64,000 nucleotides of DNA from assembly GCF_004010195.1 (NCBI RefSeq), contig NC_057753.1, positions 2,129,243-2,193,242 on the forward strand, read 5' to 3'. This DNA comes from Chiloscyllium plagiosum. Lineage: Eukaryota. The notes below the pieces were generated by a model. The model was not told the DNA's origin. It worked only from the letters and a program-made list of their open reading frames with translations, and ran no database searches. Shown piece after piece: positions 8,610-63,502 of the stretch (within the stretch, counting starts at the first letter, position 1; each line of letters begins with the position of its first letter). The position numbers were made by a program, and so were the translations under genes.

Positions 8610-9050
8610 CATAGAATCCCAACAGAATGAAAACAGGCCGTTCCACTCATTGTGCCCACACGGACCATCCAAAGAGCATCGCATCCAGACCCACCACCTA
8701 TCCAGTAAACCTACTTATAACGCGGAGAAATTGAGGTCTGCAGATGCTGGAGATCAGAGCTGAAAATGTGTTGCTGGAAAAGCGCAGAGGGTCAGGCAGC
8801 ATCCAGGGAAGAGGAGAATCGACGTTTCGGGCATAAGCCCTTCTTCAGGAATCGTGGCACATCTATGGGCAATTTACAGTGACTTATCCATTTGCCCTGA
8901 ACAGTTCTGGATTGTAAGAGGATACTGGAGCTCCCGAAAGAAACCCACGCAGATGTAGGGAGAATGTACAAATTCCACACAGAGTGACGGAGGATGGAAT
9001 CTAATGCAGGTCCCTAGAGCTATGAGGCACTAAGCCACTGTGCCGGCCAG
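8610..9050 (-). mobile_element. Old HE1-like (V-SINE) copy interrupted by a PLE fragment
   Basis: gaaacccacgcagatgtagggagaatgtacaaattccacaca matches the young copy at 32946-33257. Confidence 0.75.
8722..8853 (-). mobile_element. Penelope-like pLTR fragment with minimal hammerhead motif (8816-8853)
   Basis: The reverse complement reads gattc CTGAAGA a gggc ttat gccc GAAA c GTC gattc, followed by gatgctgcctgacc..ccagcatctgcagacc. Confidence 0.75.
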
Positions 9051-9159: not shown

Positions 9160-9345
9160 TGACCTGTTGATCTGTTACTATACATTCTGTGCCCTATGAT
9201 CCTGCCTCACCAGTTACCTGATGAAGGAGCAGCGCAACACAAGCTTGTACTTCCACTTCAACCTGTTGGACTATAACCTGGTGTTGTGTGATTTTTTAAC
9301 TTTGTCCACACCAGTCGAACACCAGTACGTCCATGTCATGACTGT
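9160..9345 (+). mobile_element. Penelope-like (Neptune-type) pLTR relic
   Basis: cctgatgaaggagcagcg...cctgttggactataacctggtgttgtgtgattttttaactttgt. Homologous remnants occur at about 25165-25265 and 39105-39180. Confidence 0.7.
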
Positions 9346-10395
9346 TATCTTCGTCAGGTATTCAATAGACATATGCCTTCCCCTGTTTAAATAATTTTAA
9401 AAAACCGGAGAAGACGTTAGTGTTGGTACATCCCGTTGGTTTCAAGCCCTGTGAAAGATTCTGCATTATTGTGAGGAGTCACTTGTGGTGCCAGTTAGTT
9501 CAGAGCGGCTGGATATTACCGATATATCTGTTTGTGTTCTTGTTGGCAATAACTCTGTTGTATAATTTGCAACAAAACATTATAATTGCATTTCTGTACC
9601 TAATAGACCACAGGCCCTTAGAAATATTGGGAAGAACTTTGTTGTCTCGTGTAAGAGGTCGACTCTCGTAAGTGTGGTTGATGATATTTGTGTTTTAGAT
9701 ATATACGATCTTCAGGAATCATCCCCATAAATCTGTCTACAAGTTAAATCTGAGTTCCTCTATGAATTGCCTTTATCTTTTGCCTTGTGAGTGTTTATTC
9801 CGGCAATGCAGGTGACCTCTAATTCCTGAACCAACCAAGGAGTGACACATTAGCCATATTTTCACGACAGCGTGAGAGAAAATGCATTCTTGTTACTTGA
9901 AGGAGGAGGAATGTGTGCATTATTGTAGAGAAAAAGACAGATATTGCCTGAGGGTCTATCAATCATGGTAGTCTGGGAATTCTCAGCTAAGGGAAGGTAG
10001 AGCACCATTCGAAACTTTTGCAGAAAAGACTGTATCATAATCAAACTAGTTCATTGTAGGGAAAGAAAGTGGAAAAGTGAAGTACTAATTTCTCTTCAAT
10101 TTTGCTGTCGGATCTCTGCGAACTTGCAGTGGAGGTTGATTAATAAAGTAGTCACAGAAATGGGAATGCAAATTTTAGGAAGGAAAGTGAACTTTGCAGC
10201 ATCAAATTATGGAAGTGCCAGGGATAACATTGAAGTCAAATGTACATTTTATTTTGCTGAATTCTGCATGAATGCAGCAGCCATCAATTTTTATATTGAA
10301 AAATGTCCTGGAAAAGAGTGGGTAGGTGTGGCCTGAAGGCAATTGAGAAGGGAGATTCCCAAATATCCCATTTAAAAAAAAATATTCTAATAAAA

Positions 10396-10490
10396 TATAA
10401 ACACCAACTCAGCAGCAGCTGCAAAAATGCAGTGCAGCAATTACGCTAATTGATATGTAATCTCAAATTAACTAATCATCTCCCACGAGC
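10396..10490 (+). promoter_or_regulatory. Candidate proximal promoter of GPCR copy A: TAAACA, E-box CAGCTG, CTAATTG, composite CTAATCATCTCCCACGAG
   Basis: The motifs are conserved with 40225-40320 at identical distance from the ATG. Function is inferred. Confidence 0.5.
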
Positions 10491-10559
10491 CTTGACATGA
10501 ATCATATTAGTGATCATTTCTCAGTGATTTGCAGAATGGGGCCAGAGTTTACATGAAAT

Positions 10560-10629
10560 ATGCACGGAGTACCACAAGGCCTGGTGTTCGCCATTTATTA
10601 TCCTGTCATCGGAGCTATTGGGGTTCCAG
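10560..10629 (+). CDS. GPR139/GPR142-like class A GPCR copy A, coding exon 1 (MHGVPQGLVFAIYYPVIGAIGVP, phase 1)
   Basis: ATG is at 10560 and the donor CAG|GTAAAG at 10629/10630. It splices in frame to 12812 to give GVPANL (TM1). The exon is conserved at 25894 and 40391. Confidence 0.88.
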
Positions 10630-12811: not shown

Positions 12812-13716
12812 CTAACTTGACAGTGATTGTAATACTGTATCGAAGAAGATGTGGTCTGTCTGGATGCATCACGCATTATCTATTGTCCATGGCCGTAAGT
12901 GATCTCCTTGTCATGGTCACGACTGTGATATTAAGTCGAGTTGCTGGAATTTATTTCCCTTTCAGTTATTTGTCGCTCACACCGGTCTGCAGTCTACGTG
13001 CAGCCTTAATCTATGCAGCCATCGACAGTTCTACCTGGTTAACAGTTGCTTTCACGTTAGATAGATTTGTGGCCATTTCTTGTCAGCAGCTGAAAATAAA
13101 ATACTGTACTGAGAGGACGGCGGCACGAGTTATAGGAATTATCTCAGTTCTGAGCTGCGTAAAAAGTTCGTTTATGTATTTTATAACCGAGCCAAGGTAT
13201 ATAATTAACAATGTACCCTGGTTTTGCAATATAAAGTTAACATTTTATACATCACCCGCATGGATTACATATGATTGGATTCGCTCAATGTTAACTCCTT
13301 GCATTCCATTCATCTTAACTCTACTGCTCAATGCTCTGACTGTCAGACACATTCTAGCAGCCAATAGAGCCCGCAGGAGACTCCTTACGCAGAAAATTAG
13401 AGAAGATCAAAAGGACAGAGAGGTGGAAAAACGGAAGAAGTCCATGATTTTACTTTTTGCTATCTCGGGTAGTTTCATTCTGTCATATTGTTTATTTTTT
13501 ACAACGGTGCTTTATTTTCGCATTGCAAATCTTACCTACTTTTCAAGTTCCAATCAATCAGCCTTTATCCTCGAGCAAAGTGGATACATGATTCAAATAA
13601 TTAGTTCGTGTATCAATCCGTTTATTTATGCTGGGACCCAAAGGAAATTCAGAGAGGAGTTAAGAAATGGGGTCAATTATCCATTCCAAGTAATTATTAA
13701 ATTATTTAATTCCTGA
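12812..13716 (+). CDS. GPR139/GPR142-like class A GPCR copy A, coding exon 2 (324 aa with exon 1)
   Basis: The acceptor tttttttacag ends at 12811. The uninterrupted ORF contains YLLSMAVSDLL (TM2), PVC, WLTVAFTLDRFVAISCQ (TM3), YCTERTA, PWFC, NALTVRHIL and SCINPFIY..KFREEL (TM7/helix 8). Confidence 0.93.
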
Positions 13717-24715: not shown

Positions 24716-25893
24716 CCCTGTGCTTGACAATATTATTTGTGGGATCCTCAAAAAGACTGAACTGAAATATGTTGAAATATATGAAATACCTACCCATTCT
24801 CCTATCTTTGTTCCCGATGATAATCCACTGTTTCTGACATGAAAGGATGTGTGTTTGCCTTCACAAATATTTCCCCCTCTTTACATACCTACAGGCACTT
24901 TTGCAAATAATCTGTATGTGACATGAACATAAATTTACATACTTCTACTCCAGACAGAAACTCACGTAGATGCAGTGAGAATGTGCAAACTGCACAGAGA
25001 TTGTTTGATGATGGAATGAATACAGGCCCCTAGCGCTGTGAGGCACGAAGGCGCTGTTCTGGAGAAGAATAAAAAAAACCTGAAACGATTGACAACTCAG
25101 ACACTGTTACTATTATCTCCTAAGTGATGAAAGAGTTAACAGCAATCTAGATTACTTCAATAATCCGAAAGTTTGCACTTCCAAATCAATCTGTTGGACT
25201 ATATCCTATTGTTGTGGGTTTTTTTTAACTTTGTCCAGCCTAGTCCAACACCTCTACACCATGACCACTATCTTTTAAAAGGATTCAATAACGATATACG
25301 TTTTTTGATAATATTTACATTTCAGTTAGAAACGACCTTTCAGAATCATCCCGGTAAGCCTGTCTACCAGTTATGTTTAAGTTCCTCCATGAACTGTCAT
25401 TTTATTTTGCCTTGTGAGCGTTTATTCAAACGACGTCAGTGAACTCTAATTTCTGAACCAACTAAGGAGTAACGACATTTAAGCTACAATTTCAGAACAG
25501 CGTGGAGAAAATGTATTCTTGTCATTTGAAGGGGAAGGGATGTGCGCATTATTGTGGAGAAAAAGAGACATATCACCTTAGCCTCTATCAAGCATGGTGG
25601 TCAAGGAATTCTCAGCTAATGGAAAGCAGAGCGCCATTCGAAACATTTGCAGAAAAGGCTGCATAATAATCAGAATAGTTAATTAGTAGGGAAATAAAAT
25701 GAGGAAGTGAAATTCCAAATGCAATTTAATGTTGCTGGCGGATTTCGGTCACCTTGCAGTGGAGATTCATTAATAACCTAGTCACAGAAATGGGAAGCCA
25801 CATTTAAGGAAGGAAAGTTAACATTTCAAAATAACAAAAAATTATCACAATTTTTTAGTGATCTGCAGAACGTGGCTGAAGTTCCCATGAACT

Positions 25894-27430
25894 GCGCATG
25901 GGGTACCACAGGGTCTGGTGCTCGTGATGTATTATCCTGTCGTCGGAGCTATTGGGGTTCCAGGTAAAATGCTTCAGTTAGTTCGTTTCCGTGAGGTGCT
26001 ATGAAGTTGAAAACGTGCAGTGTAACTTCAAGAGAGGATGAAAGCTGTCTTGCACTGAGAATTTGCAAGAACCTGTCATGTGACTAACTGACAGTCTCAG
26101 AATTTACTGGACAATTAAAAATATGCAACATTTGACTGTTTTTACAACAGTTCGAATTTAACCAATCAATTTATATTATGTCCCGAGATACTAAAATACA
26201 ATTGAATTGGAATTTGATACATTTCGTCAATATTGCTTCAATCAGATGATCCGATGTTTGTGGTAAGAAGAAATCAACATTTTAAGAAACAGAGACAGCA
26301 ACCAACTGCCATTGTCAGAGTGATTGCCAGAAAAAAAACACTCTATATTTCATATGTTTAATATGTATTGTCATTGCAGCAAAAGATGGAAGACAACTCG
26401 GTGAGATCTGCAGCAAAAAAGGGGATTGACACGGAAGACGACAGCCGTTGTGTGGGGGTTTTGAAGATTACTTTGATGTAATCTTAATAGGAACATTTAT
26501 TGGATCAGTATCTTGTTAAAGCATTGGAGACAGATAACAAACCTTTCAGAGAAAGAAGTCTTAGAGTTGTAAAAAACTGTTGATTAATGTTTATTTTTCG
26601 AGCTAAAAAATATATTTTTCCCTTTAAATAGTGGAACTTGGGGAGTTCTATGTCATTCATATTTTAACAGATAATGAGGGGAGGTGAGCTTTTCTGTATG
26701 TTTGGTTTAATGAGCAGAATGGTTCACCACCGTTTTGTAACTGAAGATGTTTAATTAGCAGCAGTAATTATATTGTTTTACCTGGTACCACTTCCATATA
26801 TGGCTCGTAAAATATTACGGTTTATTTCTTTATTTTCTTTTGTAGAATGATAGGTTCGCACTGACTGTTAGTATACATTCACTTTTAGGTTTGTATTTGC
26901 AAAGATATTCATCATTATATCGTCAAACTTTATTTACATAATTTGCATATTTGTTCTGAGTTTATTATTTAATTAATCCCCTTGCATCTCTCAGTTCTCA
27001 GCCATTTCTGTGTCCAGACAGCCAAATTTTCCTCAATCGCATACTTACTTACTTCCCAAATGATCCTAACATGCGGAAACTTAACACATTCGAGCGGCCA
27101 ATCGTACCCGCAGAAAACTAGAGAAGATCAAAATGACAGAGAAGTGGAAAAACGTCGAAAGTCTATGATTTTACTTTTTGCTATCTTGGGTAGTTTCATC
27201 CTGTCATATTGTTTATTTTTCACAACGGTGCGTCATTTTATGCTTTGCAAATCCTACCTACTTTTCAAGCTCCAATCAATCAGCCTACATTCTCGAACAA
27301 AGTGGATACATGATACAGAAAATGAATCAATCTGTTTATTTATGCTGCGACCCAAAGGAAATTCGGAGAGGAGTTAAGAAATTGGGTCACATTTCCATTG
27401 CAAAGAATTGTTAAGGTATTTAAATCTTTA
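25894..27430 (+). pseudogene. GPR139-like pseudogene B
   Basis: The exon 1 homolog 25894-25963 has GCG in place of ATG (HGVPQGLVLVMYYPVVGAIGVP|gt). Only the 3' third of exon 2 remains (about 27084-27430; REDQNDREVEKRRKSMILLFAILGSFILSYCLFFTTV), with frameshifts. Confidence 0.9.
25990..26741 (+). mobile_element. Probable solo LTR in intron of pseudogene B
   Basis: This approximately 750-bp insertion is absent from intron A. It begins (t)gtgagg and ends cgttttgtaac. The same insertion starts at 40487 in unit 3. Confidence 0.6.
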
Positions 27431-27509
27431 AAATGTGGACATTTAATGTGGATTGTATGCTATATTCTTGAATGAATTCTCCACTTAATATGGTCCCAAC
27501 TGAAACACT

Positions 27510-39000: not shown

Positions 39001-40224
39001 ATAACCAGAACAGAGCAAAAGATACTTGCAGGTTTACCGAGTTGCTCCTGTCCTGTCCCACATATCTGGTCAAATAAAGTCTCGGATAAAGCTATTTCAG
39101 TTTTCTTATTACAACCTGATGTTGTGGATTTTTAACTTTGTCCACCCCAGTCCAGCACTAGCACCGGCATACCCTGACTGTTATCTTTTGCAAGGAATTC
39201 AATACGCACATATTGTTTCCTGTTTAAAGAAGTTAATAACACGGGGGAAGACTTTAGTATCGGTACATTCGATTGGTTTGAAGACCTATGAACGATTCTG
39301 CTTTCGTGTGATGAGTTACTTGCGGTGCCAGTAGGTCAGAGTGGTTGCATATTACTGCTACATTTGCGTTGGAGCTTGTTGGGCATTAACTCTGATTTAT
39401 GATGTGTAATGATATGTTGTAATTGCATGTCTCTATCAAGTAGACCATAGTCCCTCAGAAATATTAGGAATTATTTTGTTGTCTCATGCCCGAGGTGAAC
39501 TCTAGAACGTGTAGTTGATAATATTTGTGTTTCAGATCGAAACGACCTTTTGGAATTATCCCCATAGATCTGTTTACCAGTTATGTCTGAGTTGCTCGAC
39601 GAACTGTCTTTATTTTTGCTTTGTGAGTGTTTATTCGAATGATGTCGGTGAACTCGAATTATTCATCCAACCAAGGAATATCAACATTAGCCACATTTTC
39701 ACAACGTCATGGAGAAAATGCATTCCTGTTATTTGAAGGAGAAGGGATGTGCACATTATTGTGGAGAAAAGGGCAGATATTACCTGGACCTCTATCAAGC
39801 GTGGTAATCGAGGAGTTCTCAACTAATGGAAAGTAGAGGGCCATTCGAAATTTTGCAGAGAAGGCTGCATCATAATCAGAATAGTTCATTTATCGGGAAA
39901 GAAAATGGGATAGTGAAATTCTAAATGCAATTCAATGTTGCTGTCTGATCTCGATCACCTTGCAGTGGAGATTGACTCATAACCTAGTCACAGAAATGGG
40001 AAGGCAAATTTAAGGAAGGAAAGTTAACATTGCACAATAACATGATACACGTCCCATGGAAAGCATTGGAATCAAATGTATATTTTTTTGGCTGAACTCT
40101 GCATGAGTTCAGCACCCGTGAACAGTACATTGATAAATCTGCTGGAAAATAGCTGATGTATGTGGCCTGAGTGCAATTGAGAAGGGTAATTTCCAAATAT
40201 CCAATTATAAAAAGTTTCTAATAA

Positions 40225-40320
40225 AACGTAAACACCAACCAGGCAGCAGCTGCAAAAAGGTGGTGTTGAAATTACGCTAATTGATGCTGAATTTCAAACC
40301 AACTAATTATCTCCCATGAG
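40225..40320 (+). promoter_or_regulatory. Candidate proximal promoter of GPCR copy C: GTAAACA, CAGCTG, CTAATTG, composite CTAATTATCTCCCATGAG
   Basis: It is conserved with 10396-10490. Function is inferred. Confidence 0.5.
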
Positions 40321-40390
40321 CCTCGGCATGAAGCTTATTAGTGACCATTTCTTAGTGATCTGCAGAAAGTGGCCGGACCTTCCTTGAAAT

Positions 40391-40460
40391 ATGCATGGGG
40401 TACCACAAGGTCTGGTGTTCGCCATTTATTATCCTGTTATCGGAGCTGTTGGGGTTCCAG
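40391..40460 (+). CDS. GPR139/GPR142-like GPCR copy C, coding exon 1 (MHGVPQGLVFAIYYPVIGAVGVP, phase 1)
   Basis: ATG is at 40391 and the donor CAG|GTAAAG at 40460/40461. It is in frame with 42487. Confidence 0.88.
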
Positions 40461-42486: not shown

Positions 42487-43391
42487 CTAACTTGACAGTG
42501 ATTGTGATACTGTATCGAAGAAGATGTGGTCTGTCAGGATGCGTCACATATTATCTATTGTCCATGGCCGTGAGTGATCTCCTAGTCATCGTCGTGACTG
42601 TAATGTTAAGTCGAGTTGCTGGAATTTACTTCCCTTTCAGTTATTTCTCCCTCACACCGGTTTGCAGTCTACGTGCAGCTTTAATCTATGCAGCCATCGA
42701 CAGTTCTACCTGGTTAACAGTTGCTTTCACCTTCGACAGATTTGTGGCCATTTCTTGTCAGCAGCTGAAAATAAAATACTGTACTGAGAGGACAGCAGCA
42801 CGAGTTATAGGAATTATCTCTGTTCTGAGTTGCGTAAAAAGTTCATTTATGTATTTTATAACCGAGCCAAGGTATATAATTAACAATGTACCCTGGTTTT
42901 GCAACACAAAGTTAACATTTTATACATCACCCGCATGGATCATATATGATTTGATTCGGTCTATTTTAACTCCTTGCATTCCATTCATCCTAACTCTACT
43001 GCTCAATGCTTTGACTGTCAGACACATTCTAGCAGCCAATAGAGCCCGCAGGAGACTCCTTACGCAGAAAACGAGAGAAGATAGAAAGGACAGGGAGAAC
43101 GATAAACGGAAAAAGTCCATGATTTTACTTTTTGCTATCTCGGGTAGTTTCATTCTGTCATATTGTTTATTTTTTACGACGGTGCTTTATTTTCGCATTG
43201 CAAGTCTTACCTACTTTTCTAATTCCAATCAATCAGCCTTTATTCTCGAGCAAAGTGGATACATGATTCAGATAATTAGTTCGTGCATCAATCCGTTTAT
43301 TTATGCTGGGACCCAAAGGAAATTCAGAGATGAGTTAAGAAATGGGGTCAAATATCCATTCCAAGTAATTATTAACTTATTTAAAATTTGA
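42487..43391 (+). CDS. GPR139/GPR142-like GPCR copy C, coding exon 2 (324 aa with exon 1)
   Basis: The acceptor tttttacag ends at 42486. The ORF is intact, with AFTFDRFVAIS and SCINPFIY, and is about 93% identical to copy A by manual count. Confidence 0.93.
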
Positions 43392-60496: not shown

Positions 60497-61277
60497 TCAT
60501 GTTGAGTAGATGCAATATACTCTTAACTCCTCTCTGCACTTACTCAGAGTTCCTGCATAAATAAACGGGTCAATGCATGAACATAAAAATTGAAGTCTCT
60601 ACGCATTTTCTTTCAGAATGAACATCGAGTCACTGAATACGGAACTTGATAAATAAATGATATTTGTAACGTGGAAGTAGACAATGGTTATAAAATATAA
60701 CACATACAATACAACGAAGTTTCTCAAGGTAGCAAAAGTAGAAAACAATGGAAGTGCTCTCTTTCTCCATCTCTGGGTTATTCTTTGCTACAGTAAACTG
60801 GGAATGGCTTGCAAGCTCTATTGGCCACAAGAATGTGTCGAACAGTAAGACTGGTGACTTGTAAAATATTGATTTTATGACGCTGAGCCAGAGAAGATTG
60901 TCAATTATGTAGAAAGGTTCAAACAGAAAATACAAGAAGTTATTCCTTTGATAGCACGGTACATAAAATATCCCTATGATCCACAGAACTATTTTGTCAG
61001 TGCTGTATTTTGTTTTGAGCTTCTGGCAACAAATGGATCAAAGTTGAAAGCGGCAGCTAACAAAGCAAAGCCGTCTATGGATGCACATATAAAGGCAGCA
61101 CAGATACTGCTTTTTGGTACACTGGACAGGAAAATAAATATGAAATAAATCTCAGCAATCCGGTTAAATGTTAAAGCTGTGAGAATGACCAAGAAATCCG
61201 GCACTGCCATGGACACAAGGTAGGCAATGACACATCTGGAGTGACCACATCTTCCTCGAGATCAATTTTAAAGTTTG
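60497..61277 (-). pseudogene. Divergent GPR139-like pseudogene D (exon 2)
   Basis: The acceptor tgttttcacag is followed by (A)NF..RGRCGHSRCVIAYLVSMAVPDFLVILTALTFNRIAEIYF..AFNFDPFVA, YFLFEPFYIIDNLLW, PEMEKE and QFLCSCIDPFIYAGTLSKCREELR. It has stops, frameshifts and deletions. Confidence 0.85.
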
Positions 61278-61346: not shown

Positions 61347-61413
61347 AGATAGACAGATAGATGGACAGACAGACAGACAGATAGATAAGATAGATCGATA
61401 GATAGATCGATAG
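61347..61413 (+). repeat. (GATA/GACA)n microsatellite
   Basis: Seen directly. Confidence 0.9.
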
Positions 61414-62411
61414 ATTCTGTTCGCCGAGTTGGAAGTTTTTGTTGCAAACGTTTCGTCCCCTGTCAAGGTGACATCCTCAGTGCTTGGGAGCCTCCTGTGA
61501 AGCGCTTCTGTGGTGTTTCCTCCGGCATTTATAGTGGCCTGTCCCTGCCGCTTCCGGTTGTCAGTTTCAGCTGTCCACTGTAGTGGCCGGTATATTGGGT
61601 CCAAGTCTATGTGTTTGTTGATGGAGTTTGTGGATGAGCGCCATGCTTCTAGGAATTCCCTGGCTGTTCTTTGTTTCACTTGCCCTATAATGGTAGTGTT
61701 GTACCAGTCAAATTCATGTTGCTTGTCGTCTACATGTGTGGCTACTAGGGATAGCTGGTCATGTCGTTTCGTGGCTAGTTGGTGTTCATGGATGCGGATC
61801 GTTAGCTGTCTTCCTGTTTGTCCTACATAGTGTTTTGTGCAGTCCTTGCATGGGATTTGGTACACTACATTACTTTTGCTTATGCTGGGTATCGGGTCCT
61901 TCAGCCACACTCAGACAACAACTCATCAGAACGAAGGACCCGATACCCAGCATGAGCAAAACCAATGTAGTGTACAAAATTGGCAGTCATGTCTTCACCC
62001 TCTTCAACTGTGGCGTAATCACTTCATTCAACCTCCTTATCAAAGACTCCTGAGCTAAAGCCTCACTCTTCAATCCACAGGAACTTCCTTGGACCCTCTT
62101 TTTGGGGCAGGTCTGTGGATTTTTAATTTAGGTTAGAGGAGAAGGGAGGAAGGGAGGCCCTACTTTGTAGGACCTGGGGTCGAGAACACACCCACTCAAA
62201 TAACAATCACTCACCTTCTCGACCGGCTTTGCGCTCCGACTTCACTTCCGCCCAGCACCTGCCGTTCTCTGCTGCGAAAAAAAAAGGAGGCTCCCAGGCA
62301 CTGAGGCTGTCACCTTGACAGGGGACGAAACGTTTGCAACAAAAACTTCCAGCTGGGCGAACAGAACCACAGCAACAAGCACCCGAGCTACAAACCTTCT
62401 CACAAACTTTG
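61414..62411. mobile_element. Second Penelope/Poseidon-type PLE hairpin with an enclosed CR1-like 5' fragment (about 61983-62285, minus)
   Basis: The minus strand reads SNVVYQIPCKDCTKHYVGQTGRQL..AREFLEAW. Hammerhead motifs lie at 61444-61483 (-) and 62298-62337 (+). The enclosed piece resembles the CR1 5' UTR at 6665-6890. Confidence 0.8.
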
Positions 62412-62412
62412 A

Positions 62413-62450
62413 AGATAGATAGATAGATAGATTAGATAGATTAGATAGAT

Positions 62451-62493
<43 letters not shown>
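62413..62493 (+). repeat. (GATA)n microsatellite
   Basis: Seen directly. Confidence 0.95.
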
Positions 62494-62494
<1 letters not shown>

Positions 62495-63502
62495 GGGGTG
62501 GAAGGGACAGAGACGAACAGAATGATTGCATAAAATAAACTCATTTGGCTCCCTGAGGAAAAAAAATCAAACCCTTTTACAAGAGCTGAGTAAATTTTAC
62601 AGCCTTGGGCATCATCTGGAGTTGAAAACTTTTGTTTTAGCTCTGGAACTTGCATGCATGTTTTCAAACATCACTGAGGTGAATAAATGAAGGTGGTAAA
62701 TGACTAAGCCAACGATTATGAATGAGGAATCTAACAAGAACATTGAGCATATCCTCCGAGATAAAAAAAGTCACGCCGTAGTCTGATAAATTATTGTGCA
62801 TTTCTTTGTTGGAAAATGGAATCAAAGCATTTTCAATTTGAGAGGAGATGTAACAACTACTTTTTTTTCTCTCATGTTGTAGATACTCTGTCAACACGAA
62901 AACTACCAAAGATCTGACTCAGTAAAAAAAAAAGAGATTCGGATGTCTCAGTCAAAGAAATTAACTTCCCACCACCTGCGATCTAAAACTTCCTCAGCAC
63001 TTTCTGCATTGTCAGCATTAGCAGTGACCATACGCTGAATACTGAAATCATGTGGAATATAGACACTGTATGACTGCACACAGTGTGTTGAAATTAACAA
63101 AGGAAATAAATTGTTATTCAGTAAGACAGTATTGGTGTATTACAGAAAAACGACACATCTTGTCAAAGCATTTTCTATTTCAGTCATGTGGATAGATAAA
63201 TGAAATTAGCAAAAAAAGGGAAAATGTCATTTATATTGGATGAGAAGAGACTGCTGAGTGGTTAGAGATCGACTGTGATTTGAGAGGGGTATACATATTC
63301 TATACATACACATAAAGAAACATATATTAATGCATAAAGCCCTGTACTTTGCTGTAAAAATGAACATGTACACATCACGTGTTTCTGCACAAGTCAGGTG
63401 ACTGCCATTCTCTGATTCATTACTCAGAAATAGCCTTGAGCAAGCAGTCAACAAGCATTGTTGAACATTTAACAATGCTTGGCCGCTATATGTCAGAATT
63501 AC

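Follow-up and report, generated by a model that had tools for sequence, protein, structure and literature searches.

Each of the two intact receptor genes in the window (the whole 64-kb stretch of shark DNA analysed here) is preceded by a homeodomain core lying directly beside an O/E (EBF) site, and this composite exceeds chance. In both genes its last base lies 71 positions ahead of the ATG, counted to the A at 10560 and 40391, with 70 bases between, as the initial annotation had claimed and as the letters confirm. The accompanying statement that both genes are intact GPCRs likewise stood, as they are two-exon class A genes of 324 aa each, with a dN/dS of 0.23. The composite is a real and unusual motif, for which the argument from two copies is weaker than first claimed, whereas those from its register and from one cross-species trace are stronger. 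The reading that we put forward, with confidence just short of even, is that Lhx2 and Ebf would drive expression of these genes in olfactory neurons, and that their family is a candidate fifth chemoreceptor repertoire of sharks.

Sharks combine large olfactory organs with few known receptor genes, only ~10-50 olfactory receptor genes (PMC10116579), and this mismatch is a standing puzzle. If the proposal is true, hundreds of divergent GPCRs carrying the label 'probable GPR139', with an olfactory-enhancer motif close to the start codon, would overturn the shark olfactory receptor count, and the Lhx2/Ebf composite would be present in a lineage thought to be without ciliated olfactory neurons. The upstream DNA of the salamander relatives, together with their expression, would reveal the ancestral state.

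Table 1. Features of the window referred to in the text, in window coordinates.
Feature	Position	Strand	Remarks
Homeodomain + O/E (EBF) composite, gene A	10472..10489	+	TAAT-N4-TCCC-N2-GAG; CTAATCATCTCCCACGAG
Homeodomain + O/E (EBF) composite, gene B	40303..40320	+	TAAT-N4-TCCC-N2-GAG; CTAATTATCTCCCATGAG
16-mer with second TAATTG homeodomain-type site, gene A	10439..10454	+	A/B identity at chance level
Same TAATTG-holding 16-mer, gene B	40270..40285	+	
GCAGCAGCTGC holding CAGCTG E-box, gene A	10412..10422	+	CAGCTG at 40247 in gene B; not significant
TAAACA, gene A	10399..10404	+	Seen in A/B alignment
Upstream DNA co-duplicated with gene A	9270..10559	+	77% identical to ~39110-40390; neutral yardstick
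Gene A coding exon 1	10560..10629	+	70 bp; ends at GT donor within TM1; database members of the family share this N-terminus
Gene A coding exon 2	12812..13716	+	905 bp; 7tm_1; rest of receptor and stop
Gene B coding exon 1	40391..40460	+	70 bp
Gene B coding exon 2	42487..43391	+	905 bp
Pseudogene C	25305..27483	+	Exon 2 truncated and frameshifted; ATG lost
Pseudogene D exon 2	60521..61277	-	~40-49% aa identity; several frameshifts

The receptor genes and their family

Both predicted proteins match Pfam 7tm_1, with an additional weak match to Srx (E up to 0.001), and the predicted structure is a seven-helix model (pLDDT 86.7). A fold search returned the generic class A fold only, with GPR139 at rank 35 and not singled out; by sequence, GPR139 is the best match among solved structures (E 1.7e-23 with the family profile). 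The coding sequence is interrupted within TM1 by an intron of 2182 bp in gene A and 2026 bp in gene B. This intron, together with the failure of the olfactory-receptor Pfam model to match either protein and the absence, from gene A and from all 75 relatives compared, of four OR signature motifs, rules out odorant receptor (OR) identity. To judge from sequence, the genes are GPR139-like, not ORs. The four key ligand residues of GPR139 (PMC5430874) were compared by alignment at the Trp/Phe pocket positions F3x33, H5x43, W6x48 and N7x38, and none is identical in gene A (F109/Y91, H187/R181, W241/Y249 and N271/Y282); a His stands at the aligned TM5 pocket position in 29 of 75 relatives.

A database protein search with the exon-2 protein yielded 879 relatives from 2537 candidates. 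The 120 of these that were listed are all shark-named, 70 from Heterodontus francisci, at 52-71% identity, and most of them bear the database name 'probable G-protein coupled receptor 139'; skate is among the named deeper members of the family. In a midpoint-rooted tree of 51 rows, which contained no verified GPR139, the window genes nest in a clade of shark proteins whose grouping with two salamander proteins has 100/100 support, with coelacanth, teleost, lamprey and amphioxus orphans outside this shark and salamander clade. These orphan relatives, including those of salamanders, are possibly the clades called GPR210 in PMC6504862, the available part of which describes orphan clades near GPR139/142 and makes no mention of sharks. 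The salamander relatives of the shark expansion comprise P0220, P0271, P0273 and P0274, in a cluster of 5 members.

Several traits of the family, namely its many copies, its tandem genes and pseudogenes, its short N-terminus (~10 residues before TM1) and its variable predicted pocket, suggest a chemoreceptor-like character. Among 75 full-length relatives, the 29 predicted pocket positions have an entropy of 1.17 against 0.70 at 156 other TM positions (p=2e-4), and they are only marginally more variable than 29 neighbour positions of the same span (p=0.06); as these relatives are the top matches to gene A, the diversity of the family is understated. One subfamily (P0142, P0158, P0192, P0234, P0243, P0246 and P0247) has long N-termini with repeated WNVT-type words, in contrast to the very short one of the window genes. 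A metagenome scan for exon 1 returned zero loci, and one for the receptor protein gave 194 pattern matches, none of them confirmed. Of the 23 rows listed in a search of sequencing runs, 4 contained the stretch, all four from a single study and none an RNA run, a result that carries no weight as to expression. No description of the shark receptor expansion or its regulation was found by title and abstract start in a literature search largely confined to non-subscription journals, and the sole mention of GPR139 in the available part of PMC12294341 is a reference. This very large shark receptor family is apparently undescribed.

The composite element and chance

The strict composite, TAATNNNNTCCCNNGRG, has two matches in 64 kb against a shuffle mean of 0.05, a number that 0 of 100 shuffles reached, and both matches lie before the two intact ATGs and nowhere else. 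The loose pattern, TAATNNNNYYCCNNGRR, occurs in the same two places only, with 0.45 expected. The bare O/E site is not enriched in the window (10 against 8.5 expected), nor is GCAGCTGC convincingly so (2 against 0.52; 9 of 100 shuffles). Since the composites of A and B represent one ancestral event, their rarity is counted once, and on that footing the chance per 300-bp upstream stretch is ~2e-4 (strict) to 2e-3 (loose). In a small and non-independent sample, the composite stands before both of the intact receptor genes of the window and before neither of the two broken ones. A looser near-match at 9002 was rejected for its different spacing, and a TATAAA at 10397 was rejected as gene B is without it. 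TTCTAATAAAA is identical before genes A and B (10387-10395 and the matching place in B), and we take it to resemble a posterior-Hox/Cdx site or a poly(A) signal.

The two parts stand in the same register as in the Sfaktiria probe, TAATTGATCTCCAAGGAA, a mouse composite whose function has been tested (PMC5608512, supplement 7). Counting from the T of TAAT, the centre of the EBF site falls on positions 13-14 in the probe and in both window genes, a comparison with one reference sequence; counted by eye, gene B and the probe agree at 9/18 bases and at 15/18 purine/pyrimidine positions. In the same paper, competition was impaired when 2 bp were inserted (PMC5608512).

Conservation between the duplicated copies

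Upstream homology between A and B extends over ~1.3 kb at 77% identity (78% ungapped), and this DNA has diverged more than the synonymous sites (0.26 against 0.17). Retention of the motifs between the two copies above background was not confirmed. In 10396..10490, 75 of 95 columns are identical, against 77% over the 1.3-kb flank; and the composite keeps 16 of its 18 bases (P=0.22). Over the upstream homology, identical runs of at least 16 bases number 5, against a permutation mean of 4.7. The 16-mer, GCAGCAGCTGC and TAAACA, the last of which we take to be a forkhead-type core, are present in both copies as had been placed, but all three were dropped as evidence because they are conserved no better than the flanks; long identical runs at permutation expectation deprive the 16-mer of any weight as a sign of constraint. 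The further observation that intervening bases differ where motifs are kept describes the stretch itself correctly, with 49 of 51 motif columns identical against 26 of 44 intervening ones (within-stretch permutation p=0.016), but in 59% of permutations a stretch as patchy as this one appears at some place along the 1.3 kb.

That A and B are one event, with motif conservation at background, is an objection to the olfactory reading. The same background identity is what neutral inheritance would give, by which one ancestral chance match was copied with the gene and kept because the duplicates are young, and the pattern was moreover picked after the fact from many possible ones. The distant paralogs described below bear on this explanation from both sides.

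As for the broken genes, pseudogene C (25305-25983) lost its motif block in one deletion of ~295 bp, equivalent to A 10210-10505, which took every motif. No composite lies upstream of pseudogene D within the window; its upstream alignment was set aside, as the quality was too poor. Tentatively, a putative decayed exon 1 of pseudogene D lies at 62657-62659 on the minus strand (MHASSRA, then a stop), and two AGAT microsatellites (61347-61415 and 62413-62494) flank a retroelement fragment within the span taken to be its intron. No 26-bp satellite array was found in the window.

Traces in distant paralogs

As a proxy for the upstream DNA of paralogs, we turned to gene models that extend at their N-terminal end into the DNA ahead of the gene, which gives peptide-level resolution. 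Among 318 proteins, 116 had the family exon 1, and 11 of these 116 had an N-terminal extension. The extensions of P0094 and P0122 are long and in register with the upstream frames of the window; those of P0098, P0075, P0008 and P0121 were set aside as their register is lost near the ATG, and those of P0007, P0027, P0087, P0096 and P0110 were too short to inform. Protein searches with the P0094 extension yielded no new read-through, nor did 35 additional members of the cluster supply one. An intact composite at the window offset puts a TAA stop in frame, so that read-throughs are biased towards losses and shifts.

P0094, from Heterodontus francisci, has an extension of 44 residues in which LIISLE stands 29 codons before the Met, where the window has LIISHE. 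This agreement of 5/6 residues, against 6/23 in the flank, gives a Fisher p=0.018 before allowing for the three frames tried, and was reached after a one-base shift. The one substitution coincides with the free NN within the EBF site, and no segment shared by the window and P0094 is better kept than the motif codons. In 27 N-terminal regions totalling 1324 residues and read in 5 frames, no other peptide is compatible with the composite. In the register of this read-through the 16-mer does not survive intact. P0122, from Stegostoma, is in register without a shift and has no composite-compatible peptide; it is without TM7 and forms a long branch in the tree, and its gene is probably broken. P0122 counts against the olfactory reading. 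One of the two informative read-throughs is compatible with the composite, and the amino acids (not bases) of P0094 suggest that the composite is conserved in a Heterodontus paralog.

The lack of the motif in P0122 is in keeping with neutral inheritance, but the superior preservation of the motif codons in P0094 is not, and neither is the prior chance of ~2e-4 to 2e-3 for such a register near an ATG; we consider that explanation unlikely. The homeodomain and EBF reading of the initial annotation is favoured by the Sfaktiria register, the rarity in the window and the Heterodontus read-through, but gains nothing from the conservation between A and B.

The EBF site, the E-box and TAAACA all fit within 90 bp in both genes, and E2A, FOXO1 and EBF1 jointly specify B cells (PMC6073616). 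Read as an EBF1 site with an E2A-type E-box and a FOXO-type TAAACA, the stretch could be a B-lineage element, and the receptors would be immune-cell sensors. We find this quite improbable, given that the E-box and TAAACA are not above background and were not seen in the distant paralog read-throughs examined, and that the TAAT at fixed spacing, the part kept in P0094, would go unexplained.

Start site and cell type

Genes A and B and pseudogene C all retain a TGCAG (10530-10534), and this conserved acceptor-like sequence 25 bases before the ATG means that the start site may lie elsewhere. A donor-like GTGAG at 9787 (9787-9792), ~770 bases upstream, is likewise kept in A, B and C, and P0075 and P0008 lose similarity to the window near the acceptor, as if spliced. 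The stretch could thus close an intron of the 5' untranslated region, in which CTAAT would serve as the branch point and 10524 or 10534 as the acceptor, the true promoter being further upstream. It is very improbable, in our view, that this accounts for the motif: the CTAAT adenine lies 49-59 nt from the acceptors, with AG dinucleotides between, the adjacent AG belongs to GAG, a rare acceptor, and TCCC-NN-GAG is left unaccounted for. That introns are usual in mouse OR 5' UTRs (PMC3247239) counts in favour of such an intron, and the element could act as an enhancer within an intron and still have an exon upstream of it. A 5' untranslated exon is possible from the signals at 10520-10534 and 9787-9792.

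According to the olfactory reading, Lhx2 would occupy TAATYA and an Ebf dimer the adjoining site, cooperatively, and this cooperative recruitment would open the region and switch the genes on in olfactory sensory neurons. Through tandem duplication each gene would have its own copy of a motif that in mice belongs to cluster enhancers, and the family would have become a repertoire of chemoreceptors by recruitment of a receptor lineage that was not olfactory. A wider form of the proposal seems to us possible, though on balance doubtful. It holds that the hundreds of GPR139-like genes would constitute a fifth olfactory repertoire of cartilaginous fishes, far more numerous than their ORs and V2Rs, that each gene of the subfamily would have its own Greek-Island-type composite, and that the motif underlying receptor choice in mammals would date to the jawed-vertebrate ancestor and have passed into the service of a receptor lineage unrelated to the first.

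EBF, LIM-homeodomain and proneural factors have wide roles, and the composite may be a real homeodomain/EBF element that serves other neurons or sensory cells, e.g., those of the brain or taste, or solitary chemosensory, lateral-line or electrosensory cells. GPR139, the closest characterised relative, is expressed in the brain (PMC5430874), and Lhx2 and Ebf together occupy thousands of sites away from OR clusters (n=3805, PMC5608512). The shark nose, being without ciliated neurons, points the same way: in the catshark almost every olfactory neuron is of the microvillous type and OR expression went undetected there (PMC10116579), so that the ciliated-neuron programme may be absent. On the other hand, all 39 mouse V1R promoters examined held O/E-like sites (PMC3247230), which means that the programme extends beyond ciliated neurons. 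Olfactory enhancers are also enriched, over co-bound sites across the genome, for exactly this strict side-by-side register (PMC5608512), and a family of hundreds of divergent paralogs looks more like a means of sampling outside chemicals than like a receptor of the brain. A role in such other cells is rather unlikely in our estimation.

Comparison with known systems

The name 'olfactory-receptor-like promoter' was imprecise, because the side-by-side Lhx2/Ebf composite marks mouse olfactory enhancers over OR promoters (PMC5608512, PMC12547500), and the genes are GPR139-like. The composite also occurs in the class I J element (PMC7804114) and in TAAR enhancers (PMC8213717). The shark element resembles the Greek Island composite (PMC5608512) in having a TAAT core directly beside an EBF site in the Sfaktiria register, one probe having been compared; as in Greek Island enhancers, a second TAAT site lies close by, and a clustered multigene GPCR family adjoins. 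Unlike the Greek Islands, the shark composite stands 70 bp before each gene's ATG instead of forming a shared intergenic enhancer, and it belongs to a cartilaginous fish and lies beside non-OR genes.

Compared with the V$NOLF consensus (PMC3247239), both window sites agree in the core and depart at some flanking positions. With the proximal promoters of mouse OR and V1R genes (PMC3247239, PMC3247230), the shark upstream DNA shares O/E and homeodomain sites and the weakly enriched CAGCTG-type E-box class. Those mouse promoters, however, are positioned by start sites that have been mapped, usually ahead of an intron in the 5' UTR, and they mostly lack a juxtaposed composite.

Among receptors, the shark proteins are like GPR139/GPR142, class A receptors for L-Trp and L-Phe, in their best sequence match to solved structures and in the shared database name. 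They differ from this pair in having hundreds of copies and, in gene A, none of the four key ligand residues, and salamander, coelacanth, teleost, lamprey and amphioxus orphans are the nearer relatives. The TAARs and FPRs are recruited chemoreceptors of an unrelated receptor lineage, whereas recruitment of the shark genes is hypothetical; like them, the shark genes form an expanded non-olfactory class A lineage, and in the case of the TAARs the likeness extends to enhancers that hold the composite.
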